A stretch of DNA of 64,000 nt, from the NCBI GenBank assembly GCA_000092065.1, contig CP000585.1; one strand, 5' to 3'. The stretch is from Ostreococcus lucimarinus (Eukaryota). A program made the position numbers and the translations under genes. The notes under the pieces are model-generated. The model was not told where the DNA came from. It saw only the letters and a list, made by a program, of their open reading frames with translations, and searched no databases. Below are positions 1 through 19,005 of the stretch, in pieces (positions within the stretch are counted from its first letter, which is position 1; each line of letters begins with the position of its first letter).

Positions 1-1714
1 GGGGAGGCACTCCAGTAATAATAGGTTGAAGTACCCCACACCGCTCCATTTGAAGGTATAGTCGAGTTGAACGTAAAATCGCGTCGATTTGCAGACACCT
101 CAACTGGCACTTGTCCAGCAATATGATTAGGAACAGCGCATCGAATCTCACGACCGTGCACGTAGCTCGCTGTAACGGGGCCCAAGGTGCCAAATCTGCA
201 TCCGAGCTCAGAGGTATCGGAGAACCCTTCACCAACCAGAGAAACGCTCATAGTACCCGTAGTGGGTCCTAAGCTCGAGCTAATGCTCGTCAGATCTATA
301 CCATCGATATAATCAAGACCAGTCGAGGTGAAAGGGCCGATGCCGACGCCACTGGAATCTGTCCGACTGCCAAGTTGAGCTTTTATAATTGAGCCTCCAG
401 AAGCGTGGTTCGGCGTTTGAATGACGATCAAAGCAGACGAGACAATGTTGTAGTCGACGTTCGCATCATCAACGCTGAGTTTAAGAACTTCACTCTTTAA
501 ATCTGTGCCTGAAATCCACACTTGGCTGCCTCCTGCAGCGGGTGTGACTCGTGGGTTCAAACCAGTTATCGTCGGCACCGGTTGCACCATGACTTGATCG
601 AAAGAAACACCTCCAACTTCGTCTATGGCTGAGACTGTAGTGAAGCCTCCAGGTAGTTGCGGCGCGATATACACGCTGACTATGGTGCTCGACATTGTCG
701 CGTTTCCTCGACCGAATTCGACGAAGGACAAAGTAGGAACTAGCAAGTAGGACGCCGAGCTTCTCCACAAGAAGAAGTAACCGCCTTGCTTGCTAGAAAC
801 GCCGTGATCCAAAATAACTGGCGGATCTACTGGCGCAACGTAAGTCATGGGGCTTGACGCACAGCTTTTCGATGGCGACAATGCGCTATAAACACTCGCG
901 CATACACTCGAACTCGCCGATGAAACACCAGCCGGGGACACGCACGTCACAACCAGTGAACTGACGTACTGCGCAGCGATGGGACCAATTGAACCAAACG
1001 AACACACGGCAGAGTTGTCTATGAGAGGAATGTTCGTGCCTGTGAGCGTAACCAACGTCCCTCCAATATCACCGCTCGACGATGGCGCGATGCTCGAGAC
1101 CACCGGAGCAGCTTGTCGAGACAGTGGGTAAGCGCCATCGCCACCCTCGATGGTCAAGCGCGTCGACACTTTTGTCGTCGCGACTGACTCGCACCGGATC
1201 AAACTAGAGGAGATTATGTGTGGCGCAACCGCGCTCGTGGCGTCAAATAAACAGTGGAATTGATCGGCATCATCAGCGATAAAGTGCTGCACGGTCAACG
1301 TGAATAGCTCACCAGGCATAGTTGACGCGCCAGGAGGGGAAACGCTCAGCAATAGTGGCGTCTCTTTGATCAAATACGAAACGCTCATCGTCTGGCCGCG
1401 CGAAATCACGCTCACGGCAGTGTAACCAACGCCAACAGGGTCGAGCGTGCACGCAAACTCGGACGCCCAAGTAGAGTTGAGCGAGAGAGCGATCCCATCG
1501 CAAGATGCGCTCGCCAACCAAGCGCCGAGAATAGTCACCGACGCTGGCAACTCCGTGGCACTCAAGCTCGGTGGCAGCGTCTCGGTGATTTCAGAAGTGG
1601 ACACGTACGTTATGTCTTTGGATGTTGTCGATGATAGGCCATCGGCGTGCACCCTAAACTTCGTACTGGTGCTATCGACCAGATGAGCGGGACTCACACA
1701 GTTTGCCGCTGTGC
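1..1714 (-). CDS. IPT/TIG-repeat protein coding continuation (partial, runs off the window start); either the true 3' part of the 1672..6702 gene or a 5'-truncated paralog/pseudogene
   Basis: Minus-strand translation from 1714 down to 1 has no stop codon (571 codons) and encodes IPT/TIG-like repeats (e.g. VTPAAGGSQVWISGTDL, GPTTGTMSVSLVGEGF, CRFGTLGPV). Positions 965..1714 are identical to 2814..3563, which is coding in the large gene. The frame is +1 relative to the 1672..6702 ORF, so it is not joined to it as the sequence stands. Confidence 0.5.
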
Positions 1715-2679
1715 ATGCCGACAGCGGCGAAGCCTTCTTCACCGGCGGGATTCGCGCATTCAACTTCACCAAAGCGGCTAATCGTACCAGCTACCGCAGC
1801 ACCACTCATCACGCAATCATAGCTATCGCCTACACTGCCAGCCAAACCAAAGAGGCTGATGGCAGTACCACCAGCTAGAGGGCTTGTAGGAGGAATGATG
1901 GCGACTACGTCAACACCCGTGCTGTACACGAATGACTGCGCCGTGTCCGCGTACACATTGCCCAGGATAGCGACTTGAATATCAACCGTTTCATCGTAGT
2001 ACGACGGAGCGGTACACTCCACTTTCTTATCGTGTATAGTTCGTGCTTCGATGTACGAAACCGTACCTATGCGACAGTAGACAACGCCGCCGCCCTCAAA
2101 ACCAGTTCCCGTGACGGTGACGACGGTGCCGCCAGCCAATACTCCTCGTGTCGGACTGACACTACTCATCGTGAGTATGTCGACCACGCTCAGCGACATT
2201 ACCGTTCGACTCCACACGCCGTCGTCACTCGCGCTACCAAACCCGACTTGTGCATCCGTATTGCCGACGGCGCCCACCAAATGGGAAGCGCACTTGACCA
2301 AAGCAGATGACACGAAAGTCGCGTCTACGGCTTTGTCACCAAAGGAGCAGAGTACATTCGCCTCGTCGACAAAGTCTGAGCCTAGCATATAAACGACAGT
2401 TGGAATGAAGTTCTGGAGAACGACGGGAATCGAGCCTGACACAATTGGAGACGTGTAGTAAGCAAACGCCGCAGGTTCGCTCACGCGCTCGTCGCTTGCA
2501 AAAGTGTACGAGTAAACCTGAACGAAACCCGGTGTCGTGCTACCTGAAACGGTACATGGGTCGAGTAGAACACCACCGACTTTGCACCCTGTACCGCCGC
2601 TGTAGACAACCGACCAGACCAGGCTCAGAGATGTTGATCCGACGTTGTTCACGACAGACGGCATGACGGCGCCGAGAAT
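965..2679. repeat. Lower copy of a ~2.2 kb intragenic segmental duplication (segment A 965..1714 + segment B 1715..2679)
   Basis: 965..1714 equals 2814..3563 (offset 1849) and 1715..2679 equals 4013..4977 (offset 2298), with one mismatch seen near 2659 (gac vs gat). Six-frame ORFs 1309..1521, 1447..1686, 1975..2310 and 2111..2392 give proteins identical to 3158..3370, 3296..3535, 4273..4608 and 4409..4690. Confidence 0.9.
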
Positions 2680-5600
2680 GTCCGATCGCTGAAGCGCGTG
2701 TGTAGTATTGCAGCTTCTGGACGGTGATGCAGTGCTGAAAACGCTCACACAGATATTTGCCGATGAACTCACCACACCTGCAGGAGACACACACTGTACT
2801 GTCGTAGTAGTGGCGTACTGCGCAGCGATGGGACCAATTGAACCAAACGAACACACGGCAGAGTTGTCTATGAGAGGAATGTTCGTGCCTGTGAGCGTAA
2901 CCAACGTCCCTCCAATATCACCGCTCGACGATGGCGCGATGCTCGAGACCACCGGAGCAGCTTGTCGAGACAGTGGGTAAGCGCCATCGCCACCCTCGAT
3001 GGTCAAGCGCGTCGACACTTTTGTCGTCGCGACTGACTCGCACCGGATCAAACTAGAGGAGATTATGTGTGGCGCAACCGCGCTCGTGGCGTCAAATAAA
3101 CAGTGGAATTGATCGGCATCATCAGCGATAAAGTGCTGCACGGTCAACGTGAATAGCTCACCAGGCATAGTTGACGCGCCAGGAGGGGAAACGCTCAGCA
3201 ATAGTGGCGTCTCTTTGATCAAATACGAAACGCTCATCGTCTGGCCGCGCGAAATCACGCTCACGGCAGTGTAACCAACGCCAACAGGGTCGAGCGTGCA
3301 CGCAAACTCGGACGCCCAAGTAGAGTTGAGCGAGAGAGCGATCCCATCGCAAGATGCGCTCGCCAACCAAGCGCCGAGAATAGTCACCGACGCTGGCAAC
3401 TCCGTGGCACTCAAGCTCGGTGGCAGCGTCTCGGTGATTTCAGAAGTGGACACGTACGTTATGTCTTTGGATGTTGTCGATGATAGGCCATCGGCGTGCA
3501 CCCTAAACTTCGTACTGGTGCTATCGACCAGATGAGCGGGACTCACACAGTTTGCCGCTGTGCTTGATGACCACTGCGCCGAAACAAGAATCGTGCCGAA
3601 GGAACAATATAGAGTGTTGTCGTTTGGCATGTTCGAGCCCGTCACGTACACGACGCTCCCGCCCGAAATAGCAATCCCAGTCGGAGTCACAGAGCTCAGC
3701 GTGACGGCAGCGCGTGACGCAAACGTCAGCGCGTTACTCACCAAGTTGCCATTTTGCTTCACACTAGCGCTGAACACGGCTGCGGTCGAAATTGGGAGCT
3801 CTGTAACGACTAGCGCTGAGCTGACAAAGTGACTCGAAGCGCCGGCGTTAGCTTCAAGAGACAGGTATGCAGAGTCACGCATGTGTGAGCCTGAAGTGTA
3901 AATCAACGTGCCACCCGACGTTGGGCCGTTCAGAGGGTAAACAGATGATATCACCGGTGCCCGCGCGTATTCGATGGTTTGCTGATCAATCTCGTCATCG
4001 ATGATGCTCCCAATGCCGACAGCGGCGAAGCCTTCTTCACCGGCGGGATTCGCGCATTCAACTTCACCAAAGCGGCTAATCGTACCAGCTACCGCAGCAC
4101 CACTCATCACGCAATCATAGCTATCGCCTACACTGCCAGCCAAACCAAAGAGGCTGATGGCAGTACCACCAGCTAGAGGGCTTGTAGGAGGAATGATGGC
4201 GACTACGTCAACACCCGTGCTGTACACGAATGACTGCGCCGTGTCCGCGTACACATTGCCCAGGATAGCGACTTGAATATCAACCGTTTCATCGTAGTAC
4301 GACGGAGCGGTACACTCCACTTTCTTATCGTGTATAGTTCGTGCTTCGATGTACGAAACCGTACCTATGCGACAGTAGACAACGCCGCCGCCCTCAAAAC
4401 CAGTTCCCGTGACGGTGACGACGGTGCCGCCAGCCAATACTCCTCGTGTCGGACTGACACTACTCATCGTGAGTATGTCGACCACGCTCAGCGACATTAC
4501 CGTTCGACTCCACACGCCGTCGTCACTCGCGCTACCAAACCCGACTTGTGCATCCGTATTGCCGACGGCGCCCACCAAATGGGAAGCGCACTTGACCAAA
4601 GCAGATGACACGAAAGTCGCGTCTACGGCTTTGTCACCAAAGGAGCAGAGTACATTCGCCTCGTCGACAAAGTCTGAGCCTAGCATATAAACGACAGTTG
4701 GAATGAAGTTCTGGAGAACGACGGGAATCGAGCCTGACACAATTGGAGACGTGTAGTAAGCAAACGCCGCAGGTTCGCTCACGCGCTCGTCGCTTGCAAA
4801 AGTGTACGAGTAAACCTGAACGAAACCCGGTGTCGTGCTACCTGAAACGGTACATGGGTCGAGTAGAACACCACCGACTTTGCACCCTGTACCGCCGCTG
4901 TAGACAACCGACCAGACCAGGCTCAGAGATGTTGATCCGACGTTGTTCACGACAGATGGCATGACGGCGCCGAGAATATCGGTTGAGTCGTAAACGAACA
5001 ACTTATCACCCCAAAATGAATGCGATATACCATCGCGGCGCCCGACACCTACGGGAATACTACCTATCATGTGCGCTGGGGTGACGCACTGTACTTGTGT
5101 GGTTGAGTAATAACTTGCCAACACGGATATTGATCCATATCTACAAAGCAAGTCATCTGTATCCTTGAAATTTGCCCCACGAACTCTGACCGCAGTCCCG
5201 CCCTCGAGGCCTCCCGTGCTCGGTAAAACGGAGCTAATCTCCGCGAGTGCAGTAAAATACACGCTAGTGATTTCCACACTCGCGCTTGGTGCACTATAAA
5301 GATACTCCTCGCCTTCAGTATGCGGAGGAATCTCACATTGAATGAGAGAGGAAGATACAAAGTGAACCGGAGCGGATGCATCCGAGCCGACTCTACATAA
5401 CGATGCAGTAGAGAGGCTGATACCGCTGAGTGATATCACCGATCCTCCAGATGTGGTGACGTATGTCGGTACGGCAGAAATATTTGTCCCAGTGTACACC
5501 ACTGTAGTTTCATCGCCAACCACTTCTGTGTACGTGTCTTCGCTGTCTGCGGGATACGCAAATGTCGGGAACGTGGTGCAAGGCTTGAAAGAGTCTATAT

Positions 5601-6702
5601 TTGGCCCGGTCCAAAGTTCAACGCTCGTGCTCGGATGTTGCGAAGCCGGAGAGATGCACGTAACAGTCCTATTGATCGTCAACGTGTCCATCACCGCGCT
5701 TACCGTGATTGTGCCGAAATGACATGAATAACCAAACATGTTATTCGGCTCGACGAGATCTTCGTTCCCACTTCCCTGAAGCACGACGGCGACGCCTCCG
5801 TATTCAGCCTTGGTAGAATTCCACGTGGTGAAAATTTCTATCGAGCATGGCTCTCGCCAAACTTCGAATGCCCGACTACCGCTGAGAGATCCCGAGTCTC
5901 CCCAGGAACGCAAAGACGTGTCGGTCATCCCGACTGTCGAAAAAGCCGGCGTCTCGCACTTCATAAATGCACTGGAAACGACCTCTGAGGGCGCTAACCC
6001 GCTCACAGCCGGCACTGTGCCGGTACTTCCGGCCCCAAACGCGCATTTGCTCGATCCGGGCACAAAGTTTGAACCGCTCACTCGCAACACCCCGCCCCCA
6101 CCTATATCCCATCCGTACGGAAACACTTGCTCGAGCTTCACCGGCTCGTGCAGCGTAAATGTGATCCTATCGCTAGTAAAATCTAATCCATTCATCGAAA
6201 CCTCGACGTAGGCATATCCTTTACTCAACCGTAGACTCGGTGACACCGTGCACCGCACTAACGTCGAGCTGACGTGCGTGAGCGGCACCACAAAGTCCCC
6301 GACTCGACACGCCGACACGTTCGTCGAAAAGAACGACGCGCCGTGCACGTCTACGGTTAAATTATTCTGATTCAACTGCGACGAAGGCCACACTCCCCAA
6401 TCCGCGGGATCCAGCATCTCCACTCCCGCGTTCGTCGTTCGCGCCACCGACGCGACGAGCGCGACGAGCGCCCACACACCCCGTCCTCGCGCCGTCGTCG
6501 TCCTCGCCCGCCCTCGCGCTCGCCCGTTCAAACGCCGCGACGTCGTCCCCGCGCCCACCCCATCGTCGTCGACCGTTTCGATCGTCCTCGACGTCGTCCC
6601 GCGCGACGTTTCCAACGTCCACCACCGCGTCATCGCTCTTTCGCCGCCGTCCCGCGCGTCGTCGACGCTTCGCGCGCGCGTCATCGCGCTCGAATCAATC
6701 AA
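1672..6702 (-). CDS. Giant secreted/surface IPT/TIG-domain repeat protein (1676 aa ORF; N-terminal hydrophobic segment; real ATG probably at MTRARS or MTRWW a few codons in)
   Basis: Continuous 5 kb ORF. Reiterated TIG-like units (PTSGPLAGGTAISLFG, GGTVVTVTGTGF, SPTRGVLAGGT, C[RS]FG[ST]I motifs). A hydrophobic stretch VWALVALVASVA near the N-terminus. The protein contains an internal ~330-aa perfect repeat. Confidence 0.8.
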   Translation of the reverse strand: MIDSSAMTRARSVDDARDGGERAMTRWWTLETSRGTTSRTIETVDDDGVGAGTTSRRLNGRARGRARTTTARGRGVWALVALVASVARTTNAGVEMLDPADWGVWPSSQLNQNNLTVDVHGASFFSTNVSACRVGDFVVPLTHVSSTLVRCTVSPSLRLSKGYAYVEVSMNGLDFTSDRITFTLHEPVKLEQVFPYGWDIGGGGVLRVSGSNFVPGSSKCAFGAGSTGTVPAVSGLAPSEVVSSAFMKCETPAFSTVGMTDTSLRSWGDSGSLSGSRAFEVWREPCSIEIFTTWNSTKAEYGGVAVVLQGSGNEDLVEPNNMFGYSCHFGTITVSAVMDTLTINRTVTCISPASQHPSTSVELWTGPNIDSFKPCTTFPTFAYPADSEDTYTEVVGDETTVVYTGTNISAVPTYVTTSGGSVISLSGISLSTASLCRVGSDASAPVHFVSSSLIQCEIPPHTEGEEYLYSAPSASVEITSVYFTALAEISSVLPSTGGLEGGTAVRVRGANFKDTDDLLCRYGSISVLASYYSTTQVQCVTPAHMIGSIPVGVGRRDGISHSFWGDKLFVYDSTDILGAVMPSVVNNVGSTSLSLVWSVVYSGGTGCKVGGVLLDPCTVSGSTTPGFVQVYSYTFASDERVSEPAAFAYYTSPIVSGSIPVVLQNFIPTVVYMLGSDFVDEANVLCSFGDKAVDATFVSSALVKCASHLVGAVGNTDAQVGFGSASDDGVWSRTVMSLSVVDILTMSSVSPTRGVLAGGTVVTVTGTGFEGGGVVYCRIGTVSYIEARTIHDKKVECTAPSYYDETVDIQVAILGNVYADTAQSFVYSTGVDVVAIIPPTSPLAGGTAISLFGLAGSVGDSYDCVMSGAAVAGTISRFGEVECANPAGEEGFAAVGIGSIIDDEIDQQTIEYARAPVISSVYPLNGPTSGGTLIYTSGSHMRDSAYLSLEANAGASSHFVSSALVVTELPISTAAVFSASVKQNGNLVSNALTFASRAAVTLSSVTPTGIAISGGSVVYVTGSNMPNDNTLYCSFGTILVSAQWSSSTAANCVSPAHLVDSTSTKFRVHADGLSSTTSKDITYVSTSEITETLPPSLSATELPASVTILGAWLASASCDGIALSLNSTWASEFACTLDPVGVGYTAVSVISRGQTMSVSYLIKETPLLLSVSPPGASTMPGELFTLTVQHFIADDADQFHCLFDATSAVAPHIISSSLIRCESVATTKVSTRLTIEGGDGAYPLSRQAAPVVSSIAPSSSGDIGGTLVTLTGTNIPLIDNSAVCSFGSIGPIAAQYATTTTVQCVSPAGVVSSSANICVSVFSTASPSRSCNTTHALQRSDILGAVMPSVVNNVGSTSLSLVWSVVYSGGTGCKVGGVLLDPCTVSGSTTPGFVQVYSYTFASDERVSEPAAFAYYTSPIVSGSIPVVLQNFIPTVVYMLGSDFVDEANVLCSFGDKAVDATFVSSALVKCASHLVGAVGNTDAQVGFGSASDDGVWSRTVMSLSVVDILTMSSVSPTRGVLAGGTVVTVTGTGFEGGGVVYCRIGTVSYIEARTIHDKKVECTAPSYYDETVDIQVAILGNVYADTAQSFVYSTGVDVVAIIPPTSPLAGGTAISLFGLAGSVGDSYDCVMSGAAVAGTISRFGEVECANPAGEEGFAAVGMHSGKLCESRSSGR
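2814..4977. repeat. Upper copy of the segmental duplication (A' 2814..3563, unique segment C 3564..4012, B' 4013..4977)
   Basis: See the lower copy. Segment C (449 bp, not a multiple of 3) is present only here; its absence between A and B in the lower copy shifts the reading frame. Confidence 0.9.
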
Positions 6703-7017
6703 TCGCGCCTTCGCGTCGTCGTCGCGTCTCCGCTCGCGTCTCCGCGCGTCGTCGCGCGTCGTCGCGCGTCGCGGCGTTCATCGGCGTTTCGTTCGCGCGT
6801 CGCGCGTCGCCGCGTCGTCGTCGACGCGCTCGTCGCGCTCGCGCGCGCGCGTCTGGTCGCGCGCGTCGCCCCGCGGCTCGCAAACGGCCGGACGATCGCG
6901 CGGTGCGCGAGGTGCGCACACGAGGACGGGATTCGATAGTTTGCGATGACACGAACGATGGATGGATGCGGCGCGGTGCGATTCGCGACGCGCGAGACGG
7001 CGACGCGCGGTTGAGCG

Positions 7018-7899
7018 ATGTCGAACGGCGATGACGACGACGCGCGCGCGAACGACGGCGCGGACGACGCGAAGGCGACGGGAGACGCGACGGGAGACGC
7101 GAACGCCGGCGACGGGGACAATCGGCGGACGGCGCGAGACGGCGCGCGAGCGACGCGCGAGGGCGACGACGGCGAGGACGCGCGACCGCGAGGGAAGAGG
7201 CCGGACATCTCGAACTTGGTGTCGGTGAAGATCGATAACGTGTCGTACGAGCTGCGGGAGGAGGATCTGCGCGAGGCGTTCGAGAAGTTTGGGGACGTCG
7301 GGGACGTGTACATTCCGAAGGAGCGCGGGAGCTATCGCGCGCGGGGGTTCGCGTTCGTGAGGTATCACTCGAGAGAACACGCGGAGGCGGCGGTGAGCGC
7401 GATGCACGAGACGGAGTTGGGCGGGAGACACATTCGAGCCGCCATCGCGGAGCGTGGACGCCCGGAGGGAGGGTACCAAGCGAACAATAACCGCGGTAGA
7501 TACGAAGCCAGACGGCCGTACGACGACGATCGAAGAAGGGACGATTACAGAGACCGTCGCAGAGACAGCGACGGGTACCGCAGAGACGATTATCGCAGAG
7601 ACGATTATCGCAGAGACGATTATCGCAGAGACGATTATCGCAGAGATGATTATCGCAGAGACGACTACAGAGACCGTCGCGACGACTACAGAGACCGTCG
7701 CGACGACTACAGAGATCGACGCGACGATTACAGAGATCGACGACGAGACGATTACAGAGACCGACGAGACGATAGCAGACGGAGCGGTTACTCGGGTCAC
7801 GATGACCGACGTGGCTACGACGACCATCGAGGACGTGACGATAGATACGACGGGCGTCGGGACTCTCGCTCGGCTCCGCCGCCGCCGTCGCGCGAATGA
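7018..7899 (+). CDS. RRM-domain SR-like RNA-binding protein with a C-terminal Arg-Asp-Tyr repeat tail, (RDDYR)n and (YRDRRDD)n
   Basis: ATG at 7018. RNP-2-like VSVKIDNV and RNP-1 RGFAFVRY. An acidic N-terminus and a C-terminal tail of RDDYR units. The 378-aa ORF on the opposite strand (6778..7914) is a repeat-driven antisense artefact. Confidence 0.8.
   Translation: MSNGDDDDARANDGADDAKATGDATGDANAGDGDNRRTARDGARATREGDDGEDARPRGKRPDISNLVSVKIDNVSYELREEDLREAFEKFGDVGDVYIPKERGSYRARGFAFVRYHSREHAEAAVSAMHETELGGRHIRAAIAERGRPEGGYQANNNRGRYEARRPYDDDRRRDDYRDRRRDSDGYRRDDYRRDDYRRDDYRRDDYRRDDYRRDDYRDRRDDYRDRRDDYRDRRDDYRDRRRDDYRDRRDDSRRSGYSGHDDRRGYDDHRGRDDRYDGRRDSRSAPPPPSRE
7579..7770 (+). repeat. Coding tandem repeats: 15-bp unit cgcagagacgattat (~6 copies) followed by 21-bp unit gactacagagaccgtcgcgac (~4 copies)
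   Basis: Seen directly in the sequence. They encode the RDDYR and YRDRRDD repeat tail of the RRM protein. Coordinates are approximate (+/- a few nt). Confidence 0.7.
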
Positions 7900-7952
7900 T
7901 TCCTTATCGCGCACTAAATCTACTCAAATAATCAATACAATCAAACAAGTTG

Positions 7953-10900
7953 CTAATTTTTTTTCCCAAACTTTGCTTGCAAAGCCGCGAGACTCGAGGC
8001 AGACGAATCAGTCGCGGGCGTTGCTGGTTTTGAGTCTGATGGCGTGGCGCTGGGCAAAAAGCTTTGTTTTTTGCCCTTCTTCTTCTTTGACACCGTCTTC
8101 TTGCCCGTGCTCGCCGACCCACTGATTTCCACGGTGTGCGCTGGAGCCAATATTCTCTGTGCTCCAGCTTGAACGGTGAGCAAACCATCTTCGTCGTCGA
8201 TGACTTTGCCTCGGAACCCCGACTTTTTGACGACGACGACGTCTCCGACGGTGGCTTGCATATCATCCTCTGAGAGCTCAAAGTCTCCGAAGGAGCTTTT
8301 CGTGTTCCCAGTCGGGGTCGGTTTTGACACGCGAGCAGACGATGCGAGTAAGTCATCTGCGCGTCTTGCGGCTTGGGATGCGCCACGAACCTTTTTAATC
8401 TTCATCTTTGGCGGCGCCGTGGTCGCAACGAAGGCCTGCGACACGTCTTCGAGGCCCACCTTCACTTGCATGATCCCAGCCTGAACTGTCACCGTCGATC
8501 CGTCAACGGAAACAACTTTACCGCTCATGCCTGTCGACGCTATTTTCACATCTTCTCCGGAGGAAGGAATCCAGTTCGCGAGAAGTGCATCCTGCTCCGC
8601 TTTCAGTTGCTCCTCTGCCTCTCTCGCCAATCGCGCGGCGCGCTCGCGATCCGTCTCACCCGACGCTGCTGCGGAAATCTTGGACGGTGCGATGGCGTTT
8701 TTCTGCTTTTCTACTCTCGCTACTTCCGCAACTCGTGCCTTCGCATCTCGCATCATTGTCATTACCGTACTCGCTTGCGCATATGCGGCAGCCTCTCTCG
8801 CAGAGCGAATGAAGCCCATCGCGTTTTCGACTCGTGGCAAAGTGGCATCGATTTCATCAAGCATACCGATTGCGGTCGCAATATCCGCGTCTGCATCGCG
8901 GCGTGCGGTTTCAAGTTTAGATATTGTATCATCTAAGCTCACCAAACCTTCTCCAAGTAATTCTCGAGCTTCGTGAACGACGTCCGCATCCAATTTATAT
9001 CTCGTAGCGATTTGCAGCGCGCTTGAACGCCCGGGCACTCCCCACAAGAGCTTGTAAGTCGGTCGTAAGTCCGCTTCATCGAATTCGACAGCAGCGTTTT
9101 CGAACTCCTCGTGTTCGTACTTGAGCGCTTTCAACTGCCCGTGATGCGTCGTCGCAAAAGTGAGGCAAGCGCCCAGTTGGCCGGGAATAATTCCAGCGAG
9201 CGCTTTGAGCAACGCATAACCAATCGCGGCGCCTTCGGCTGGTGACGTGCCCGTACCGACCTCGTCCATCAACACGAGTGATTCTGGCGTGCTCTGCTCG
9301 AGAATTGCTTGAGCTCGAGTGAGACGCCCACTAAAAGTACTGAGACTCGTCAAAAGGCTTTGATCGTCACCGATATCCACGAGCACCTTGTCAAAGAATG
9401 GAATGACGGCGCGCTCTGCAGGGATGAATATCCCGGATTTCGCCATGAGCGCGGCGAGGCCTACGGCCTTCATCGCCGCTGTTTTACCACCAGTGTTTGG
9501 ACCTGTAATGACGACGACCTTTGTTCGCTTAGATGCGAAAATATCTACAGGAATAGGTCCCTTAAGCTTTGGCGCGCCATCTTCTTCGACTTCGTCAAAA
9601 TCGTCAAAGAAATCATCAAAAATAGCATCTTTCGTGGTTGAAGATTTGATGGACCCTCGCGTCGCGACTTTGTACCCCGTTGAACTACTGCCTCGTGAAT
9701 TTTGCGACTCCACGGCTTCTGCAGCGGCCTGGCGCCTCTCCGCGGCGGCTTCGATGGCTTGAGATGCCAATACGGGCTGTCGCAAACCGACAAGCTCGAG
9801 GAGTAAAGAAGATTTTTCTATCGGTGGTTTCTTCGTCTGTTCTCGCGCTTCATCGAATCCTTCGTCGTCTTGCTCTTCAATGTCCTCATCTTCATCTTCA
9901 TCTTCATCTTCATAAGCTTCGTAGAAGCCGTCATCGTCATCAGCAAAGACAGAAAACTCGGGGCGCACACCGTTGAGAGCTTGACTGTATCTGCACTTGG
10001 CCGCGATGACGTCCAACTTGATGACGATTTCTAAACACGCGAACAACTCCTCCACCACGAGCGCGATATCGTTCGATAGTTCGCGCTTGATGGCGTCTAT
10101 CGCACTCTTTTCCGCGTCCACAGCTTGTGCTAGCTCTCTATTCAACGTCACAATCCCCGGTGGCTCGATGAGCACAAGCGCGCCGCCAGCCATCGTACCG
10201 ACGACGAGCACGTCAGGCGGCGCCGGCGCCGGGATAGCGAGCACCATACGACCTTGGTGCGTTGTTGGCGTTCCTTTTCCTTGCATTGCCTTCTTAAGCT
10301 TTCCTTCCGCCGCTCCCTTTTGCGCTCGCGCGCGACGCAGTTCCGGACTCGCATTGTCGCGAAATTCGCCCGTCTCCTCCACCGCGCCTCGAATCTTCTC
10401 CGCTAGTTCGGAGTGCGTGATCATCTCGCCCGAAATCGCACGCAACGGTACCAAGGCCCGCGGTCGTCGCCCACTCTCCGTCACGCCTTCTATGGATGTC
10501 TTCAATCTCTTCGCGCTCTCCAAGAACGCCGCCGTCGCCGCGAGTTCGTCCCCGCCCAGCGGCGACCCTTGCCTCGTTTTATAAAATCCTCGTCGCACCT
10601 CCGCCGTGAGCATGCCTCCGAACTCGAGCGATACGCCGTGTTTACTCTCCATCGCCATCGCCGCTTCGGTCTCATCCAGCGCCTTCCGCGCCTCTCTCGA
10701 CGTCGTCGACGCCTCCAGCGTCTCGCACGCCGCCTTCCCCAGCGCCGTCGACGCGCGCTTCGCCAAGAACATTCGCGCGTCGTCCCATCCCGCCGAAGCT
10801 AGCGACTTTTCCAGCAAGTCTCGTCGCACCGCGTCCGCGTCCTTCCGCGACGGCCCGAACGACGCTTTCCGCGCCGACGTCACGACCGCGCCGGCCGAGT

Positions 10901-11036
10901 CCGAGTCGTCTTCTTTATCCGCGTCCGCGCGCGCGCGCGTCGCCGCGCCGCGCGTTCGACGCCCGACGCGCGTCGTCGCGCGACCTCCGTCGACGCGCGC
11001 GCGCGGCGCGACGACGCGTCCCGATGCCGTCGCCAT
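7953..11036 (-). CDS. MutS2-like protein (MutS domain V ABC ATPase) with an Arg-rich N-terminal presequence; no clear Smr motif, C-terminal KOW-like repeats
   Basis: Walker A ITGPNTGGKTAAMKAVGL, LVLMDEVGTGTSPAEGAAIGYALL and TTHHGQLK motifs. The listed ORF start 11105 is a GTG; the first in-frame ATG (MATASGRVV) is at 11036. Confidence 0.8.
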   Translation of the reverse strand: MATASGRVVAPRARVDGGRATTRVGRRTRGAATRARADADKEDDSDSAGAVVTSARKASFGPSRKDADAVRRDLLEKSLASAGWDDARMFLAKRASTALGKAACETLEASTTSREARKALDETEAAMAMESKHGVSLEFGGMLTAEVRRGFYKTRQGSPLGGDELAATAAFLESAKRLKTSIEGVTESGRRPRALVPLRAISGEMITHSELAEKIRGAVEETGEFRDNASPELRRARAQKGAAEGKLKKAMQGKGTPTTHQGRMVLAIPAPAPPDVLVVGTMAGGALVLIEPPGIVTLNRELAQAVDAEKSAIDAIKRELSNDIALVVEELFACLEIVIKLDVIAAKCRYSQALNGVRPEFSVFADDDDGFYEAYEDEDEDEDEDIEEQDDEGFDEAREQTKKPPIEKSSLLLELVGLRQPVLASQAIEAAAERRQAAAEAVESQNSRGSSSTGYKVATRGSIKSSTTKDAIFDDFFDDFDEVEEDGAPKLKGPIPVDIFASKRTKVVVITGPNTGGKTAAMKAVGLAALMAKSGIFIPAERAVIPFFDKVLVDIGDDQSLLTSLSTFSGRLTRAQAILEQSTPESLVLMDEVGTGTSPAEGAAIGYALLKALAGIIPGQLGACLTFATTHHGQLKALKYEHEEFENAAVEFDEADLRPTYKLLWGVPGRSSALQIATRYKLDADVVHEARELLGEGLVSLDDTISKLETARRDADADIATAIGMLDEIDATLPRVENAMGFIRSAREAAAYAQASTVMTMMRDAKARVAEVARVEKQKNAIAPSKISAAASGETDRERAARLAREAEEQLKAEQDALLANWIPSSGEDVKIASTGMSGKVVSVDGSTVTVQAGIMQVKVGLEDVSQAFVATTAPPKMKIKKVRGASQAARRADDLLASSARVSKPTPTGNTKSSFGDFELSEDDMQATVGDVVVVKKSGFRGKVIDDEDGLLTVQAGAQRILAPAHTVEISGSASTGKKTVSKKKKGKKQSFLPSATPSDSKPATPATDSSASSLAALQAKFGKKN

Positions 11037-11116
11037 CGCGGCGTCGCGCTGTGTCGGCTTCACATCGCCATCTCTGCGTGCGCTCGATGACGCCACCGTC
11101 CTCACTGACGCGCGCG

Positions 11117-11542
11117 ATGCCGGACGAGCGCCCCGCGAGCGCGGGCACGCACGCGATGACGAGCGCGCAGGCGTCGTCGCGGATCGTCGTGCGACCCGGG
11201 TACTCGCAGATGGATTGGTTGCGACGCACCAAGCGCGAGCGCGTGGACGGCGGTGACGCGGACGCGAAACCGCTGGACGCGTCGCGCGTGATCTCGCTCG
11301 AGGAGCTCGCGACGCACGCGACGGTGAATGATTGTTGGATCGGGTTGCGCGGGAAGGTGTATAACTTGACGGCGTACGTGGAGTATCACCCGGGCGGCGC
11401 GGCGGTGCTGGAGGAGGCGTTCGGGAAGGACGCCACGGCGCTGTTCGACAAGTATCACAAGTACGTGAATGGGGAGTACATCATGCGAGCGACGCGCGTG
11501 GGGGTGATGCCGGGATACGTGGGCGATAGCGACAGCGATTAG
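11117..11542 (+). CDS. Cytochrome b5-like heme-binding domain protein (start uncertain; candidate ATGs at 11117, 11156 and 11210)
   Basis: Core LEELATHATVNDCWIGLRGKVYNLTAYVEYHPGGAAVLEEAFGKDATALFDKYH with the HPGG motif. The ORF frame begins at 11024 and overlaps the MutS2 start codon, so a downstream ATG is more likely. Confidence 0.65.
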   Translation: MPDERPASAGTHAMTSAQASSRIVVRPGYSQMDWLRRTKRERVDGGDADAKPLDASRVISLEELATHATVNDCWIGLRGKVYNLTAYVEYHPGGAAVLEEAFGKDATALFDKYHKYVNGEYIMRATRVGVMPGYVGDSDSD

Positions 11543-11644
11543 CGGACGAATTGATGAAGTGTACAGTAGACTAATTTATTTAATTCTCAGACTCGGGCGA
11601 CGGCGCGTCGCGCGCGCGCGCCGCGTCGGCGCGCCGTGGTTTCA

Positions 11645-12097
11645 TCATCGCCCGCGCTGATCTTTGGGTAAGTACACGTCGTCGTGGAGTGCTTTGTCGT
11701 ACGCGTCGATGCGCGGAAGTCGCGCGAGGTCCTCGCGGTCACCAGCTAAATAGTAATACGCCTCCTCTGTCGCGCGCGGTTCCTCGCGGCGCTCCACCTC
11801 TATTGTTTCTCGCGTATACATGCCGGTCGACACCTCCTCGAGTTCGTCCAAAAGTGTCAACGTGTCATCGTCGACGGAATACAGTTCGCCGTCGATCACG
11901 CGCGCGTCATCCGTCGTCGATTTGACGAGGTATGGATACCCAGCGTCGGCCAGGAGCATCACGTGCTGCGCGCGTTTCGTGCGCACTTCACCCATGAAGC
12001 GCGCGTTGCCGCGCTCGAGAAGGCGATGGTTGTACAAGCCTCGCTTGAGCGTGCCGTAGACGAACACGTTGTGCGCGCCCGAGGTCGACGGCGACAT
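11645..12097 (-). CDS. Gamma-glutamylcyclotransferase / AIG2-like family protein
   Basis: VFVYGTLKRGLYNHRLL ... GYPYLV ... GELYSVDDDTLTLLDELEE pattern of GGCT/AIG2-like proteins. The listed start 12130 is TTG; first ATG (MSPSTSG) is at 12097. Confidence 0.75.
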   Translation of the reverse strand: MSPSTSGAHNVFVYGTLKRGLYNHRLLERGNARFMGEVRTKRAQHVMLLADAGYPYLVKSTTDDARVIDGELYSVDDDTLTLLDELEEVSTGMYTRETIEVERREEPRATEEAYYYLAGDREDLARLPRIDAYDKALHDDVYLPKDQRGR

Positions 12098-12177
12098 GCG
12101 AGGCGAGAGATGAAGACGCGTCGCGTCCAACTACTTTTACAAGTCGTCTTTGCTTACTTTTCAATTACAATTTCTCT

Positions 12178-13141
12178 TCACTTTCTCTTTAAGAGCTTGA
12201 TTGCGTTCATATACGCCGGTGTTGTCGGCGGTTGCACCGGTTTTAGTCTGACTTTGGTGTCATCCAACGCATAGCTCTGATCGGCGTCGTATCCCGACAA
12301 ATCGCCGCACGCCAAAAACGGCACGAGCACATTGTTCGGCCAGGACTTGGTTCCCACGGCCGCGCCCTCGTCTCCAGCGGCGTGAGACGTCGCACGCGCT
12401 TCTAAAATACGAGTCAATTGATGTGGTTCGAATCCCTCTGGAGGGGAGTAACCCTGACACACTATGAATGCTTCTGCGAGCGGTGCAAAACGAGACATGG
12501 TTAGTTTCTCCAAAACGTGCGCGCGGCTCCATCATCGTCGTACCTATGCTAGAATTCCGGCTACTTTTCGGCTTGGCGCACGTGACTTCGGGGAAGAAAA
12601 TTTTCAGTTGTGAGTAGAGCAAACTGATGTCTTTCCCCCGAAATATCTTCGCTATGAACGTTCCGCCTGGTTTCAATATGTGCGTCGCCACCGTCAAGCC
12701 GGCGAGTATGAGCTGCGCCTGCATAAACTCATCCAAATCGTGCAAACCCGTGACGTCGGGCGCTCCATCGCCGACGATCAAATCCGCGTGTTTCCCATCG
12801 AAATGCGACAGGACCTCGCGCACTTTGTCCATCGACGTGATATCGCCCTGTATCGTCGTCACGCCCTCGATCGGCGCCATCGGTTGCAAGTCGATGGCGA
12901 CAATCTTCGGCAGCTCTTCCTCCTCGACCCCTCGCGCCAACGCGGGTAGGTACAACTTTCGACTCAAAACCTGCGACCACGACCCGGGCGCCGCGCACAG
13001 ATCCACGACGTGTCGCACGTCTCGAAAAATATCGAACGACTCGTCAATTTGCAGCAACTTGAACGCCGACCTCGCGCGCCATCCCTCCTCTTTCGCCTTG
13101 CGGTAGTATATATCGCGCTTATCCTTGCTCGACTTCCCCAT
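12178..13141 (-). CDS. FTSJ1: tRNA 2'-O-ribose methyltransferase TRM7/FTSJ1 (FtsJ/RrmJ family), two exons: complement(join(12178..12473,12544..13141))
   Basis: N-terminus [34 protein letters not shown], then [12 protein letters not shown] and [17 protein letters not shown] motifs. The reading frame switches between ORF 12260..13417 (ending ...[10 protein letters not shown]) and ORF 12178..12513 ([15 protein letters not shown]). Removing a 70-nt GTACGA...CTAAC...CGCAG intron restores the conserved ...SSRNSSIEAFIVCQ... sequence. Confidence 0.85.
12474..12543 (-). other. Spliceosomal intron (70 nt, GT-AG, phase 1) in TRM7/FTSJ1
   Basis: Minus-strand sequence gtacgacgatgatggagccgcgcgcacgttttggagaaactaaccatgtctcgttttgcaccgctcgcag. 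Boundaries were checked by ORF-frame arithmetic. CTAAC branch-like motif ~30 nt upstream of the AG. Confidence 0.85.
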
Positions 13142-13173
13142 CGCGCGCGCCGCGCCGCGCGCGATCGATCGGT

Positions 13174-13205
<32 letters not shown>

Positions 13206-13431
13206 TGGCGTAAAAGCGTCGCCGCCGCCGCCGACGGCGCGACGCGACTCGGCAGAGGACGACGCGCGCGATCGACGCACGGACCGCGCGCGCGCGAGCG
13301 AGGGAACCGCGCGATCGGTAATCGTCCGCGCGGTGCGCGACGGTCGAAGCGCACGCGACGCGCGCGAGGAGGCGCGGGGACGACCGCGTCGATTGCGACT
13401 CGACCGAGTGGTGCCATCGAACGCGCGCGCG

Positions 13432-16392
13432 ATGCGGAAGAAAGTGGACGCGCGCATACGCACGCTCGTGGAGAATGGGGTGAAGAACAACGAACGCACG
13501 ATGTTCGTGCTCGTGGGCGATCGAGGACGAGATCAAATCGTCAACTTGCATTACATGCTGAGTAAAGCGGTGGTGAAGTCGAGGCCGAACGTGCTGTGGT
13601 GCTATAAGAAGGATTTGTACCTGTCTTCGCATAAAAAGAAACGAGCGAAACAGATCAAGAAGATGCAAAACTCTGGCTTGATGGATTCGGAGAACGAGGA
13701 TCCGTTCTCACTGTTCGTGGCGTCGACGAATATTCGGTACTGTTATTACGCGGATACGCAGAAAATTTTGGGGAACACGTACGGGATGGCAGTGTTGCAA
13801 GATTTCGAGGCGCTGACACCGAACTTACTGGCACGAACGATCGAGACCGTGGAGGGTGGAGGGTTGATTGTGCTGCTGTTGTCGAACATGGAAAGCTTGA
13901 CGCAGCTGTATAACATGACGATGGACGTGCACTCGCGTTTTCGCACAGAGGGCCACCAAGACGTGGTCGCTAGATTTAATGAGCGATTCACGTTGAGTTT
14001 AGGGGCGTGTCAGACGTGCATCATGATGGATGATGAGTTGAATATTTTGCCAACGAGTTCGCATATTAGAGGCATAGAACCAGTTGAAGAAAAGCATGCG
14101 GGAGAGGCCCAAGAGCTTACCGATCTGAAGGAGAGCATGGAGGAAGTTGAGCCGGCTGGCCCGCTTGTGAAGTGCTGTAAGACTATGGATCAAGCCAAAG
14201 CAGTGGTGACGTTTCTCGACGCTGCGAGTGAGAAGACCCTCCGATCAACAGTTGCGCTCACCGCCGCGCGCGGTCGCGGTAAATCTGCTGCCATGGGTAT
14301 AGCTGTCGCAGGAGCCGTCGAAATGGGTTATGCAAACATTTTTGTCACTTCTCCCAGTCCTGAAAACTTGAAGACATTCTTTGAATTCATTCTCAAAGGC
14401 TTCGATGCGCTTGGATACAAAGAGCACTTGGATTACGATCTCGTAGAGTCCACCAACCCCGCGTTTGGAAAGTGTATTGTGCGTGTCAACGTCACGAGAC
14501 GTCATCGACAAACGATTCAGTACATTTTGCCTCAACACGCAGAGCGTGCGACGCAAGCCGAGTTACTCGTCATCGATGAAGCAGCCGCCATTCCGCTGCC
14601 TACGGTAAAAGCGTTGCTCGGGCCGTATCTCGTGTTCCTTTGTTCTACAATCAACGGTTACGAAGGCACAGGGAGGGCGTTGAGCATCAAACTCATCGGT
14701 AATTTGCGAAGGGAAGCGGCAACGTCACAACAGGCGAACAAGGATGGGAAGCTGGCGACAGGTGGATCTCGATTGCTCAGAGAAGTAGCTCTTGCTGAAC
14801 CTGTTCGTTACGCTGCTGGAGATAGGATCGAAAAATGGTTGAATGATTTGTTGTGTCTCGATGCGGCGGATGCATTAACGCCGCTCATCCACGCGCTGCC
14901 TCCGCCCAGTGCATGCGAACTTTATGAGGTGTCGCGTGATACCTTATTCAGTGCGCACGCCGCAAGCGAGCAGTTCTTAAAGAAAATGATGGCACTATAT
15001 GTTTCTAGTCACTACCGCAACACGCCGAACGATTTGCAGCTCATGTCTGATGCGCCGGCTCACCGCCTCTTTGTTCTCTTGGCGCCGGTGGATGAAACAC
15101 GAAACATGTTGCCAGAGATTCTTTGCGTCATTCAGGTAGCTTTAGAGGGTGCGATCTCGCAGAAGAGTGCGCACGCAACACTGGCTGCGGGGTTATCTCC
15201 ACAAGGTGACCTCATTCCGTGGACCATGGCATCGCAATTTCAGGATGAAGGCTTTCCTTCCTTCACGGGGGTGCGCATTGTTCGCATCGCCGTGCATCCG
15301 GACTTGCCTCGTCAAGGTTACGGTTCTCGTGCGTTGCAGCTCATCCACGATTATTACGAAGGAAAATTGGCTGATTTACGCGAAGAAGAAGTGTCGAACA
15401 TCGACGCCAAGACGAATACTGAGCACTGGCAGCACACAGGCAAGCTCACAGAGGAGACACTCAAGCCTCGCGAGAATTTGCCGCCGCTTTTGACAAACCT
15501 CTCAGAGCGCAAGCCAGAGAGGGTGAACTGGATCGGCACCGCATTCGGACTCACGTCCGAACTTTACAGCTACTGGAGCAAGGGTGGCTATAAGCCTGTG
15601 TACCTGAGACAAACGTCAAGCGAGACTACGGGCGAACACTCGTGCATCATGTTACGCCCTTGCTTTCCAGTTGGCGAGGAGGAAAGCCCGGATGGTCACT
15701 GGGTGGATGCGTTCTACGAAGATTTCCGCGTGAGATTCACTTCTTTGATGGGATCTGCTTTTAGAGACCTTGCTCCAGGTCTATGTTTGTCTTTGATGGC
15801 GCCAAAGCTAAACTGGGACGAAAAACAAGGCGCGGGGCGCGACTCCGTCTTGAAGGCGGACAATGAGATTTTGAGCCCGCACGATTTACGACGCATCCAG
15901 AAATACTCAGCCGCTTTGGTGGACCATCATTTGATTGGTGATTTGGTCCCCCCACTCGCGCGCGCATACTTTGCAAAACGCATTCCCGTGACGCTTTCGT
16001 ACACGCAAGCTGTGATTTTGCTCATCCTTGGTCTGCAACTGAAGACCATCGACGACGGAATGAAAACTTTGGACTTGCCCGGACAACAAATAATGGCATT
16101 ATTCAACAAAGCTATTCGTCGGATACACGGCTCACTTCTCAAGGCACGCGAAGCCGATATCGAGAACTCGCTGCGTTCTGTGAGTATGCCAGATTTGAGA
16201 CCCCATGCGGTTGGATTAGATGAAGAATTAGATGAAGGGTACGTCGACTTCAACTTTTTTTCGCGTTCGCCCGACTCGTGTCTCGCTCCAAAGATGATGG
16301 AAGTGATCGAAAACAATATAGTTCCAGAATTTCACGCTCTTTGGCGCCACCGTTTAGGCGGGGTTATAAGTCATAGAGTTCTATGTTGGTAA
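13432..16392 (+). CDS. NAT10: RNA cytidine acetyltransferase NAT10/Kre33 (ac4C in 18S rRNA and tRNA)
   Basis: [47 protein letters not shown]-terminus. Helicase and GNAT regions follow ([49 protein letters not shown]). Intron-less 987 codons from the ATG at 13432. Confidence 0.9.
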
Positions 16393-16523
16393 CTAAGCTC
16401 AACAGGCCTGATCCATCACTTTGGAGCGCACTTCAAGACTGGAGACGACCGAGCAAGGCGATGACCGCACGACTGACCTAACATTACTTTTTTGATGACA
16501 GTGCCGCCGCGGTGAACGCCGAA

Positions 16524-17023
16524 ATGGCCGCCAAGCGTAAAGAACTCTTAGAGGTGCGTCCTTTTCGCGACCCACTCGTGCGCGATACCACCTCGTTCGG
16601 CGATGACGAATCGAATATCAACCAGGTAGCAGAACATCTCCATGTTGAGAAAAATATCGCTGCGTTCTTACCGAGCCGAGCGAGGTGGTTTCTGCGCGAA
16701 TCGGTTTCTCGCGACGCGGTCGTAATTCAAACACTGACCCCGAACTGTTTTTATCACTTTAATAGGATGCTGCACTCGAGCGATTCGCCATCGCTGGTAC
16801 GGACGAAGAGTGGGCCGGTGCTCTGAAAGGCGCGGCCAATCGCTCCAACAAACTGCTTAGCGTGAAGAGAAAAGCCGGTTCCAAGGACAAACACGCGTTC
16901 ACGCCGTCGAAGCCAAACACCGACAAGTCTTCCGAAGTCAAGGATAACAAGAGCGAAAAGAAGCACAAGAAGGATAAAAAGTTCAAAAAAGCGTCATCTT
17001 CCAAACGCTTGAAAGGAACGTGA
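16524..17023 (+). CDS. Small Lys-rich protein of unknown function, two exons: join(16524..16625, ~16766..17023), ~119 aa
   Basis: Exon 1 MAAKRKELLEVRPFRDPLVRDTTSFGDDESNINQ ends at a GTAGCA donor (16626). A 140-nt intron contains CTGAC ~30 nt before a TTTAATAG acceptor. Exon 2 is an ATG-less open frame DAALERFAIAGTDEEWAGAL...KKHKKDKKFKKASSSKRLKGT* ending at a stop at 17021-17023. Acceptor position read by eye (+/- 2 nt). Confidence 0.55.
16626..16765 (+). other. Spliceosomal intron (~140 nt, GT-AG, phase 0)
   Basis: gtagcagaac...cactgacc...ttttatcactttaatag. AT-richer than flanking exons. Confidence 0.55.
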
Positions 17024-17089
17024 GACAGGACGAGATTTTAATACGTAGAAACCCGTTCAGAAACACGCCACTTCGCGCCGTGAGTCATC

Positions 17090-17713
17090 ATGTTACGCAT
17101 GGCGACGCTCGCCTTATCCGTCGTCGCCAGTACCGCGAATCGCGCGAGTGCTTTTCGATCGTCACCGACGCCGCTCGTCGTCCGCGCGCGCCGATGCGTC
17201 GCATCGCCGCGACTAAACGTCGGATACAGTTGCGACGGACCGAAGGCGTTGCACGGAGACGACGACGCGGGAGCCGTACAGTGGGAGGTGCACGAAGTGA
17301 AAGGGGACGGTCGATGCTTGTTTCGTTCAGTTTCTGTCGCACGGGCGCTGTCAAAGAGCGGTCGACGTCAGAGTGAAGTCGACGAGCTTGCGAGCGCCGA
17401 CGAATTGCGCGCAGCGGCGGTAAATGAGCTCCTCGAACGACGCGAGGAGACAGAGTGGTTCATCGAAGGCGATTTCGATGATTACGTCGCGCGCATGCAG
17501 CAGCCGATGGCGTGGGGAGGTGAACCAGAGATTATTATGCTCACGCATGTGCTCGCGAGCCCGATAAGCGTGTATATGGCCGAAGGCGTGGGCATGCGTT
17601 CCATAGGGGTGTACGGCGAAGACTATGCGGATAGCGCTCAGTACGACGATTTGGCGGTGTTGTTCCATGGCGCTGGACATTACGAGGCGCTTCGCGTGTT
17701 CGGGAGGGCGTGA
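17090..17713 (+). CDS. OTU-domain cysteine protease (deubiquitinase-like) with an N-terminal presequence
   Basis: HEVKGDGRCLFRSVS catalytic Cys motif and C-terminal HGAGHYEAL His motif. N-terminus MLRMATLALSVVASTANRASAFRS looks like a targeting peptide. Confidence 0.8.
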   Translation: MLRMATLALSVVASTANRASAFRSSPTPLVVRARRCVASPRLNVGYSCDGPKALHGDDDAGAVQWEVHEVKGDGRCLFRSVSVARALSKSGRRQSEVDELASADELRAAAVNELLERREETEWFIEGDFDDYVARMQQPMAWGGEPEIIMLTHVLASPISVYMAEGVGMRSIGVYGEDYADSAQYDDLAVLFHGAGHYEALRVFGRA

Positions 17714-17781
17714 TGCGATGGATTGTCGAAACGCATCTTTTCGCGCCAAAGGTGAATGTTGAATGTTTGTAATACTGTTAT

Positions 17782-19005
17782 CTAAACCGTGACTTTGTCG
17801 CACGGCACGCAGAATGACTTTTGAATGTCGGTCAACTTTGAACGATCTCGCGCGCAACAAGATTTCGAGCACGCGCCGACGCTTTCTTCTCCCATCATGA
17901 ACACGGGATTGCGCTCGCACTCGTGACCTTGCGCCCAGACGGGGCACAATTCTGTTTCATCCGTGCAAGTCGGCGTTTTAGCCGTGCCAGTTTCGAACGG
18001 ATTTTCGTGAATCCACTTCGTCGCTGTGTATTTCGTGCCCCCAAGCGTCGGACACGACGCGTGATTGGCGAATGGATCATTCGTACCGTTGATGTGAAAC
18101 GAAAAGAACAACACGGCTTCGCCTTTCTTCGGTATCACGCTGAAACCGTTTCCATCGTTCCAACCACACTCGCTCAGCTTATCTTTGTTTGCTAAAAATG
18201 CTGCTTTTGTCTCCGGGAGCGGCGTTCCTTGTGGAAAAGACGTCTCACCACCGGATGTTGGCTCTCGTAGAAACATCAACACCGTCGCGATGCGCTTGCC
18301 TCCGTTCTCACTAATAATCCCATCGTGATGCGCCACGTATTCTTGTCCATCCCGATATCTCAGTAACTGTAACTGTTCTTGATGCTCCCACGGAATTCCA
18401 CTGTATTTAGCCACGCGATCTTCCACCCTTTGCAGCGTCTCTGTCAACCGCCGCGTCACAAACGTCCCAAACGACGTGCGCGCCGTCGACACCGCCCCCG
18501 ACTCATCGGAGTTCACCACCGTCGATCGCTCTAATTTTTTCTCCCCGAGCTCGATCAAATGCTCACACTCTTCGTCGCTGAGAAAGTTTTTAAGCAAAAA
18601 CACCCTCGGCGACCAGCTCAGCGTCTCCACTACTTTCGACCTTTCGACGTCGTCTTCGTCGCCGCCGCCGCCGCTCGTGCTCGTCCGCGGCGCTTCTTCC
18701 CCGGACGTCGTCGTCGTCGTCGCGAACGTCGTCATCGACGACGACGACGACGCATCGTCGTCATCGACGCTCGCGCGTCCCGCACCGGCGCCGTCCGCGA
18801 CGTCCGGCGCGGGCGGTCGCGCGACTTCGCCGAGCCATCCGATGAGACGCTGGTCATCGTCGACGACGACGTCCCCGTCATCCGCGCGACCGCGCGACGC
18901 GAGCGCGGCGATGACGCACGCGACGAGCGCCGCGCCACCGATCCGTCGCGCGCGTCGTCCGCTCGCGCGCGTCGTTCGCATCGTCGCGCTCTGCGGTGTC
19001 GACAT
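17782..19005 (-). CDS. Prolyl 4-hydroxylase alpha-subunit-like 2OG-Fe(II) oxygenase with a C-terminal ShK-like (ShKT) cysteine module; type II signal anchor
   Basis: P4H core (YVAHHDG...GGETSFP...NHASCPTLGGTKYTATKWIH). ShKT module CTDETELCPVWAQGHECERNP...CSKSCCARD. N-terminal hydrophobic GAALVACVIAALA. Listed start 19008 is TTG; ATG at 19005. Confidence 0.8.
   Translation of the reverse strand: MSTPQSATMRTTRASGRRARRIGGAALVACVIAALASRGRADDGDVVVDDDQRLIGWLGEVARPPAPDVADGAGAGRASVDDDDASSSSSMTTFATTTTTSGEEAPRTSTSGGGGDEDDVERSKVVETLSWSPRVFLLKNFLSDEECEHLIELGEKKLERSTVVNSDESGAVSTARTSFGTFVTRRLTETLQRVEDRVAKYSGIPWEHQEQLQLLRYRDGQEYVAHHDGIISENGGKRIATVLMFLREPTSGGETSFPQGTPLPETKAAFLANKDKLSECGWNDGNGFSVIPKKGEAVLFFSFHINGTNDPFANHASCPTLGGTKYTATKWIHENPFETGTAKTPTCTDETELCPVWAQGHECERNPVFMMGEESVGACSKSCCARDRSKLTDIQKSFCVPCDKVTV

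Follow-up and report, generated by a model that had tools for sequence, protein, structure and literature searches.

A giant IPT/TIG-repeat gene of Ostreococcus lucimarinus that is probably split in the reference sequence by a 449-bp deletion within an internal tandem duplication

The window, by which we mean the whole stretch of 64,000 nucleotides of contig CP000585.1 that was analysed, contains at its beginning two large overlapping open reading frames on the minus strand, here called ORF-A and ORF-B, both of which encode IPT/TIG domains (Table 1). A gene for MutS2 lies upstream of them at 7953-11105 and a gene for an ABCG-type transporter follows the TIG gene. Read from the ATG at 6417, ORF-A matched XP_001418053.1/ABO96346.1 (UniRef A4RXT8) exactly, an IPT/TIG domain-containing protein of 1581 aa, and exact look-up placed this truncated product on one contig only, namely the reference chromosome. 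ORF-B, when read from the GTG at 1742-1740, is identical to XP_001418052.1/ABO96345.1, a 'predicted protein, partial' of 1716 aa that starts with VKKASPLSAC and ends with DYTKIFKM. The GenBank model for this protein has no start codon and is flagged as partial. Both halves of the locus are already public as separate models, the second of which was re-discovered here, and the finding is to that extent an ordinary one. Two further ORFs in the window were exact matches to XP_001418062.1 and XP_001418071.1 of Ostreococcus lucimarinus CCE9901.

The annotated start of ORF-A, Met 96 at 6417, is probably placed too far downstream. In Ostreococcus clade B, the sister clade, both the MTRA... at 6684 and the hydrophobic stretch VWALVALVASVA are matched by sequence that precedes the equivalent Met, and gene calls on metagenome contigs begin at 6684 (3,513 aa). 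A protein cluster of 160 members holds the reference proteins together with intact alleles; it was missed by a word-indexed search despite queries that were 100% identical and was found by exact look-up. Upstream of the gene, low-complexity DNA rich in GCGACG (6700-6900) recurs as weak matches of 70-80% identity at ~58.6-59.1, 31.8-32.0, 61.3-61.5 and 10.9-11.0 kb, probably because intergenic or 5' regions typically have such a composition, and not because of a mobile element. A putative GC-rich ORF of 378 codons was also observed between MutS2 and the TIG gene, at 6778-7914 on the minus strand (3338-4474 in metagenome contig L002). It gave no Pfam match and is overlapped by an antisense ORF of 293 codons.

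The distal frame was described in the initial annotation as stop-free on the minus strand from 1714 down to 1, with further TIG-like repeats, and as lying in the +1 frame relative to the upstream ORF. In substance this description holds, and only its starting coordinate is off, by 2 nt. Upon re-inspection, no stop was found in the 570 codons of the frame with codon starts at 1712, 1709 and onwards as far as position 3, while the frame that starts exactly at 1714 contains 29 stops. The same open frame extends up to 1790 for a total of 596 codons, the upstream stop in frame being at 1793-1791, and the remaining two frames of the 1-1790 stretch contain 22 and 33 stops. Given a frequency of 0.025 stops per codon across the window, a run of 596 open codons would arise by chance with a probability of ~2e-7. 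The TIG-like repeats were recovered as four stretches by the Pfam TIG profile (PF01833; E = 3.4e-28, 97.9 bits at a cut-off of 20.9), and translation confirmed that ORF-B is in +1 relative to the ORF at 1672..6702. Beyond window coordinate 1 the gene runs on for ~1,135 further codons, which brings the part that is open but disconnected to ~1,730 codons in total.

Comparison of the window with itself revealed an in-frame tandem duplication of 2,298 bp (766 codons) inside the gene, with units composed of segments X-Y-Z-W. Along the coding strand, pre-X is followed by X1, Y1, Z1, W1, X2, Z2, W2 and then the rest of the gene (Table 1). The differences between X1 and X2 both fall in the first 24 bp. 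The units are offset by 2298 bp at X, which is in frame, and by 1849 bp at Z, which is 1 mod 3. In L002 the same 449 bp (Y) separate the bases that correspond to window positions 1715 and 1714. As 449 is 2 mod 3, the frame is shifted by +1 at the junction and a TAG at 1674-1672 comes into frame 14 codons on. The frame change is thereby accounted for by a specific lesion whose length is not a multiple of 3, that is the 449 bp equivalent to window 4012-3564 that are absent between T1715 and G1714. The earlier observation that the stop at 1672 exists only in the frame imposed by the junction was accurate, as this TAG is in frame only through the deletion. What went unseen at that stage is the cause, an internal 2.3-kb tandem duplication whose second unit has undergone an out-of-frame loss of 449 bp. 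No microhomology was found at the breakpoints; all that is present is an imperfect match at 8 of 11 positions, offset by 3 nt.

Table 1. Features of the IPT/TIG locus in window coordinates
Feature	Position	Strand	Description
ORF-A	1672..6702	-	Upstream ORF, 1676 codons from first TTG; 9 TIG stretches, E = 2.1e-84, 278 bits
X1	4013..4980	-	Unit 1, 968 bp; identical to X2 except at 2 synonymous sites, 4978 and 4957
Y1	3564..4012	-	Unit 1, 449 bp, ~1.5 TIG domains; absent from unit 2 of the window
Z1	2814..3563	-	Unit 1, 750 bp; 100% identical to Z2
W1	2683..2813	-	131 bp, tail of unit 1 and ancestral duplication junction into X2; diverged from W2
X2	1715..2682	-	Unit 2, 968 bp; from self-comparison
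Deletion junction X2 to Z2	1714..1715	-	..GTCGGCAT joined to GCACAGCGG..; blunt, T1715 to G1714
GTGAGT hexamer	1692..1697	-	Val-Ser of motif NCVSP; inside Z2, 17 nt past the T1715 to G1714 junction
Z2	965..1714	-	Unit 2, 750 bp, read in shifted frame; from self-comparison
W2	964-~834	-	Unit 2; strongly diverged from W1
ORF-B	3..1790	-	596 codons without a stop, continuing past the window edge; from translation, Pfam and public record

JGI metagenome contigs were scanned with an alignment of the open frame, and five contigs (L002-L005 and L011) of 99.4-99.98% DNA identity were obtained. Altogether, 12 independent marine metagenome assemblies of the species were 99.4-99.98% identical to the window, and 11 of these have one uninterrupted ORF with Y in both units. 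L002, L003 and L004, whose alignments to the window are 99.35-99.98% identical, align to window 11251..1715, continue with 449 extra bases and then align to window 1714..1 (X2-Y2-Z2); each contains a single uninterrupted ORF of 3,519 codons at 4550..15109, counted from the first TTG. A product of 3,424 aa that starts from the same Met (M96) as the reference model was located by exact look-up on eight further ENA scaffolds (L013-L020), and a product of 3,513 aa on JGI contig Ga0228649_1000003 and on one ENA contig of 71 kb. L005, in which the repeat is collapsed to a single unit (X-Y-Z-W2), is also intact with 2,778 codons from stop to stop, and L011 ends within the repeat. A 30-mer across the window junction was absent from L002-L005, L011 and L013-L020. 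The earlier proposal of a true gene far longer than 1676 aa is correct for the species, as the single ORF of 3,424-3,519 codons in 11 metagenome contigs spans both frames. Outside of the deletion, the window and L002 differ by 2 mismatches in 9,537 bp and are identical over 1714..1, and MutS2, the TIG gene and the ABC transporter follow one another in this order in all contigs.

Natural variation was in turn used to evaluate the distal frame. Within the ORF, L002 and L004 differ by 73 SNPs, of which 57 (78%) are synonymous and 16 nonsynonymous, where 25% synonymous would be expected at random. For the distal frame, synonymous and nonsynonymous SNPs number 5 and 1 within the window and 20 and 10 beyond its edge. 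This synonymous excess indicates that the distal frame is coding sequence under purifying selection in natural populations. An open frame due to chance is ruled out by the SNPs together with the TIG domains and the low probability given above.

The number of intact contigs has to be read with the nature of the assemblies in mind. In every short-read contig the interiors of the two units do not differ, and any SNP that separates strains recurs at the same offset in the other unit, which reflects either very efficient gene conversion or one path of the assembly graph that was walked twice. Since one loop may have been assembled twice, Y in unit 2 of the short-read contigs is weaker evidence than the count of 11 suggests. 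On the other hand, a branch corresponding to the window junction, if present at appreciable coverage, would normally be expected to break contigs at the end of X, and this did not happen. The units of L002, L003 and L004 lie at 6272-8438 and 8570-10736, and L002 and L004, for example, differ at 13 sites in both units; the same mirroring is seen in L013-L020. The 2.3-kb unit was observed once (L005 of O. lucimarinus; L008 of clade B, 5803-18433) or twice (L002-L004, L013-L020) in short-read contigs, as a result of either copy-number polymorphism or collapse by the assembler. Separately, the ABC transporter gene behind the TIG gene (~12300-14275 in L013-L020) is called at 645, 789, 810 or 823 aa, and a gap of 100 N is found in four of the eight loci (L013, L014, L016 and L020). 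The 5' end of this gene is either variable or poorly assembled.

On the basis of these results we consider, at a probability of roughly 0.9, that 1-1790 is the normal downstream half of one giant IPT/TIG-repeat gene that is split in the reference by the 449-bp deletion, whatever the origin of that deletion. The locus of O. lucimarinus would then comprise a single intron-free giant gene that encodes an array of IPT/TIG beta-sandwich domains. The comparisons show an in-frame tandem duplication of 2,298 bp, X-Y-Z-W1 followed by X-Y-Z-W2, and in the sequence of the reference strain the second unit has lost its 449-bp Y via the blunt junction between T1715 and G1714. Translation shifts by +1 there and terminates 14 codons later at the TAG at 1674-1672, and the distal ~1,730 codons stay open and disconnected.

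It had been proposed instead that a young 5'-truncated paralog adjoins the gene, and one might equally take the frame at 1-1790 for an independent gene with its own start, as GenBank lists it as a partial protein of its own. Z2, which makes up the first 250 codons of the frame, is in fact an exact copy of Z1 in ORF-A, as a paralog would predict. This copy is, however, unit 2 of an in-frame intragenic duplication, and the duplication junction from W1 into X2 is also found in clade B. Furthermore, the sequence below 965 is unique and collinear with a single gene in every other contig, the GenBank model is flagged partial and lacks a start codon, and in all other assemblies, as well as in the sister clade, the open frame carries on collinearly from the upstream part of the gene. 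A separate gene or paralog is therefore highly improbable, and the single split gene is retained as the preferred reading.

A further possibility is that the two frames are rejoined during expression, either by a short intron or by programmed +1 ribosomal frameshifting in the overlap at 1790-1675. The GTGAGT next to the junction had been singled out as the only donor-like sequence nearby, with no acceptor that would restore the frame. The hexamer is not a donor but encodes Val-Ser of the TIG motif N-C-V-S-P, and the identical bases in Z1 (3546-3541) are translated in frame within ORF-A. From GTGAGT, the nearest AGs are at 26, 32, 38 and 44 nt, none of which restores the frame. Contrary to the statement on acceptors, the frame is restored by an 82-nt GTGAGT...AG interval with its AG at 1617-1616, though not as a credible intron. 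Removal of this interval (1697-1616) from unit 2 alone gives a stop-free product, and many GT..AG pairs with a length of 1 mod 3 likewise give an open product; such a density of GT..AG pairs is nevertheless expected by chance. The 82 nt are also identical in unit 1 (3546-3465), where their removal leads to a stop at residue 958, and they are coding in all intact alleles. As the gene is a single uninterrupted ORF in all of these and the hexamer encodes part of a conserved CVSP motif, an intron at GTGAGT was rejected. No signal for frameshifting was recognised by eye in the overlap at 1790-1675. Since the lesion is absent from the wild alleles, no dedicated bypass could have evolved, and rejoining of the frames by either route is accordingly given hardly any weight.

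The duplication itself was followed into the sister clade using L001 (852 kb; ENA ERZ28548085), which judging from its contig name and PMC13558084 probably comes from Ostreococcus clade B and was probably assembled with Nanopore plus Pilon. L001 contains the same duplication with Y in both units (6247-8504 and 8537-10780, 98.1% identical), and its units are ~69% identical to the window. Many frameshifts occur all along its TIG gene, as is expected for residual Nanopore errors, and L001 is consequently silent on frame integrity. The long-read support for Y in unit 2 concerns the sister clade only and not O. lucimarinus. The alignment of the window to L001 is collinear through W1 into X2, and the peptides at the duplication junction correspond, ..SC-NTTHALQRS-DILGAV in O. 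lucimarinus versus ..SC-DFTHNTTYS-DVLGAV in clade B. In addition, a separate contig of 1.1 kb (L012) spans the clade B duplication junction. Because the junction is common to both clades, the duplication would be old and later homogenised and not a new gene copy, and from these alignments it most likely arose before the two clades separated. The identity between units, 99.9-100% in O. lucimarinus and 98.1% in clade B as compared to ~69% between the species, is to be read with the reservation that one unit may have been copied twice in short-read contigs.

In O. lucimarinus the tract of homogenised sequence ends at 2814/965, and in clade B it reaches ~100 bp further. The tail of the unit is strongly diverged in O. 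lucimarinus (2683-2813 versus 834-964) and ~98% identical in clade B (L001 8440-8504 versus 10715-10780). Contigs L006-L010 were considered as more distant relatives that lack the duplication. This was rejected, as L008 and L010 are 99% and L006, L007 and L009 ~90% identical to L001, and all five are short-read contigs in which the repeat is possibly collapsed.

Whether the deletion is a property of the strain or of its sequence was evaluated separately. No secondary decay was found downstream of the lesion, there being no stop in the 596 codons of ORF-B and complete identity of 1714..1 to an intact allele. The lesion is thus either very recent or not real. A real and very recent lesion fixed in strain CCE9901 is given about an even chance. 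It would result in a truncated protein of ~1,580 aa with the distal half untranslated, and a recent mutation fixed in a clonal culture of this strain, which we take to be haploid, would match the absence of decay.

The deletion may also be a cloning, assembly or finishing artefact of the Sanger reference, with an intact gene of 3,500 codons in CCE9901 itself, and this we hold to be a serious possibility that falls short of an even chance. The lesion is flanked by stretches of 944 bp and 750 bp that do not differ between the units, and no kind of site is harder to assemble. None of the 12 other assemblies of the species contains the junction, which is unique to the reference, while the remainder is virtually identical to wild alleles, as was seen for L002. 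What speaks against an artefact is the blunt joining of positions that are not homologous. Errors made by assemblers, or by repeat slippage in clones, normally fall at sites of homology, and it follows that the sequenced molecules must actually have carried this junction. The reference genome is, moreover, described as finished. The deletion could also be genuine and recent in haploid CCE9901, a natural knock-out of the distal ~1,850 residues, with the units being kept identical in every wild strain by intragenic gene conversion. Efficient conversion of this kind would account for the mirroring of strain SNPs between the units, but we regard the combination as unlikely. The probability that is left over beyond a real lesion and an artefact belongs to bypass or separate expression of the two frames.

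In practical terms, XP_001418053.1 and XP_001418052.1 should be treated as parts of one gene of ~3,500 aa whose reference sequence is broken; otherwise, comparative or metagenomic work based on this reference would arrive at wrong counts of genes and of domain architectures. With a real deletion, a widely used strain would be without the distal half of a large protein that is secreted or located at the surface. The locus furthermore serves as a small and clean example of how perfect tandem repeats are treated inconsistently by assemblers, being expanded, collapsed or broken. The main value of the finding is practical, and it has no bearing on open biological questions.

The intact ORF gave at least 15 Pfam TIG matches (560 bits), and no Pfam families other than those of TIG type were detected in the protein. 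A hydrophobic segment is found near the N-terminus and no transmembrane-like segment was seen at the C-terminus in a hydropathy scan. This combination suggests that the protein is most likely secreted or located at the surface. The best matches among solved structures were single IPT domains of plexin-A1 and the hepatocyte growth factor (Met) receptor, with E values of 3e-7 at best.

The locus can be compared with several known systems. The public records agree exactly with window 6417..1672 and, in the open frame, with the sequence from 1742 down, but whereas these records give two unrelated 'predicted proteins', the two are here shown to be halves of one gene that carries a 449-bp deletion relative to the wild alleles. 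The environmental alleles share the flanking genes and the duplication with the window and differ from it by Y in the second unit, and so they read through. Concerted evolution of long intragenic tandem repeats occurs, for example, in fungal adhesin or mucin-type genes. The TIG gene may resemble these, with units that are near-identical within a species and ~69% identical between species; it differs in having two 2.3-kb units only, and in that the identity observed in O. lucimarinus could partly reflect assembly. Finally, the algal protein has the IPT/TIG domain type in common with plexins, the Met/Ron receptors and fibrocystin-type proteins. In contrast to those, it is without non-TIG Pfam families, and the likeness lies at the level of single domains and not of the whole protein.
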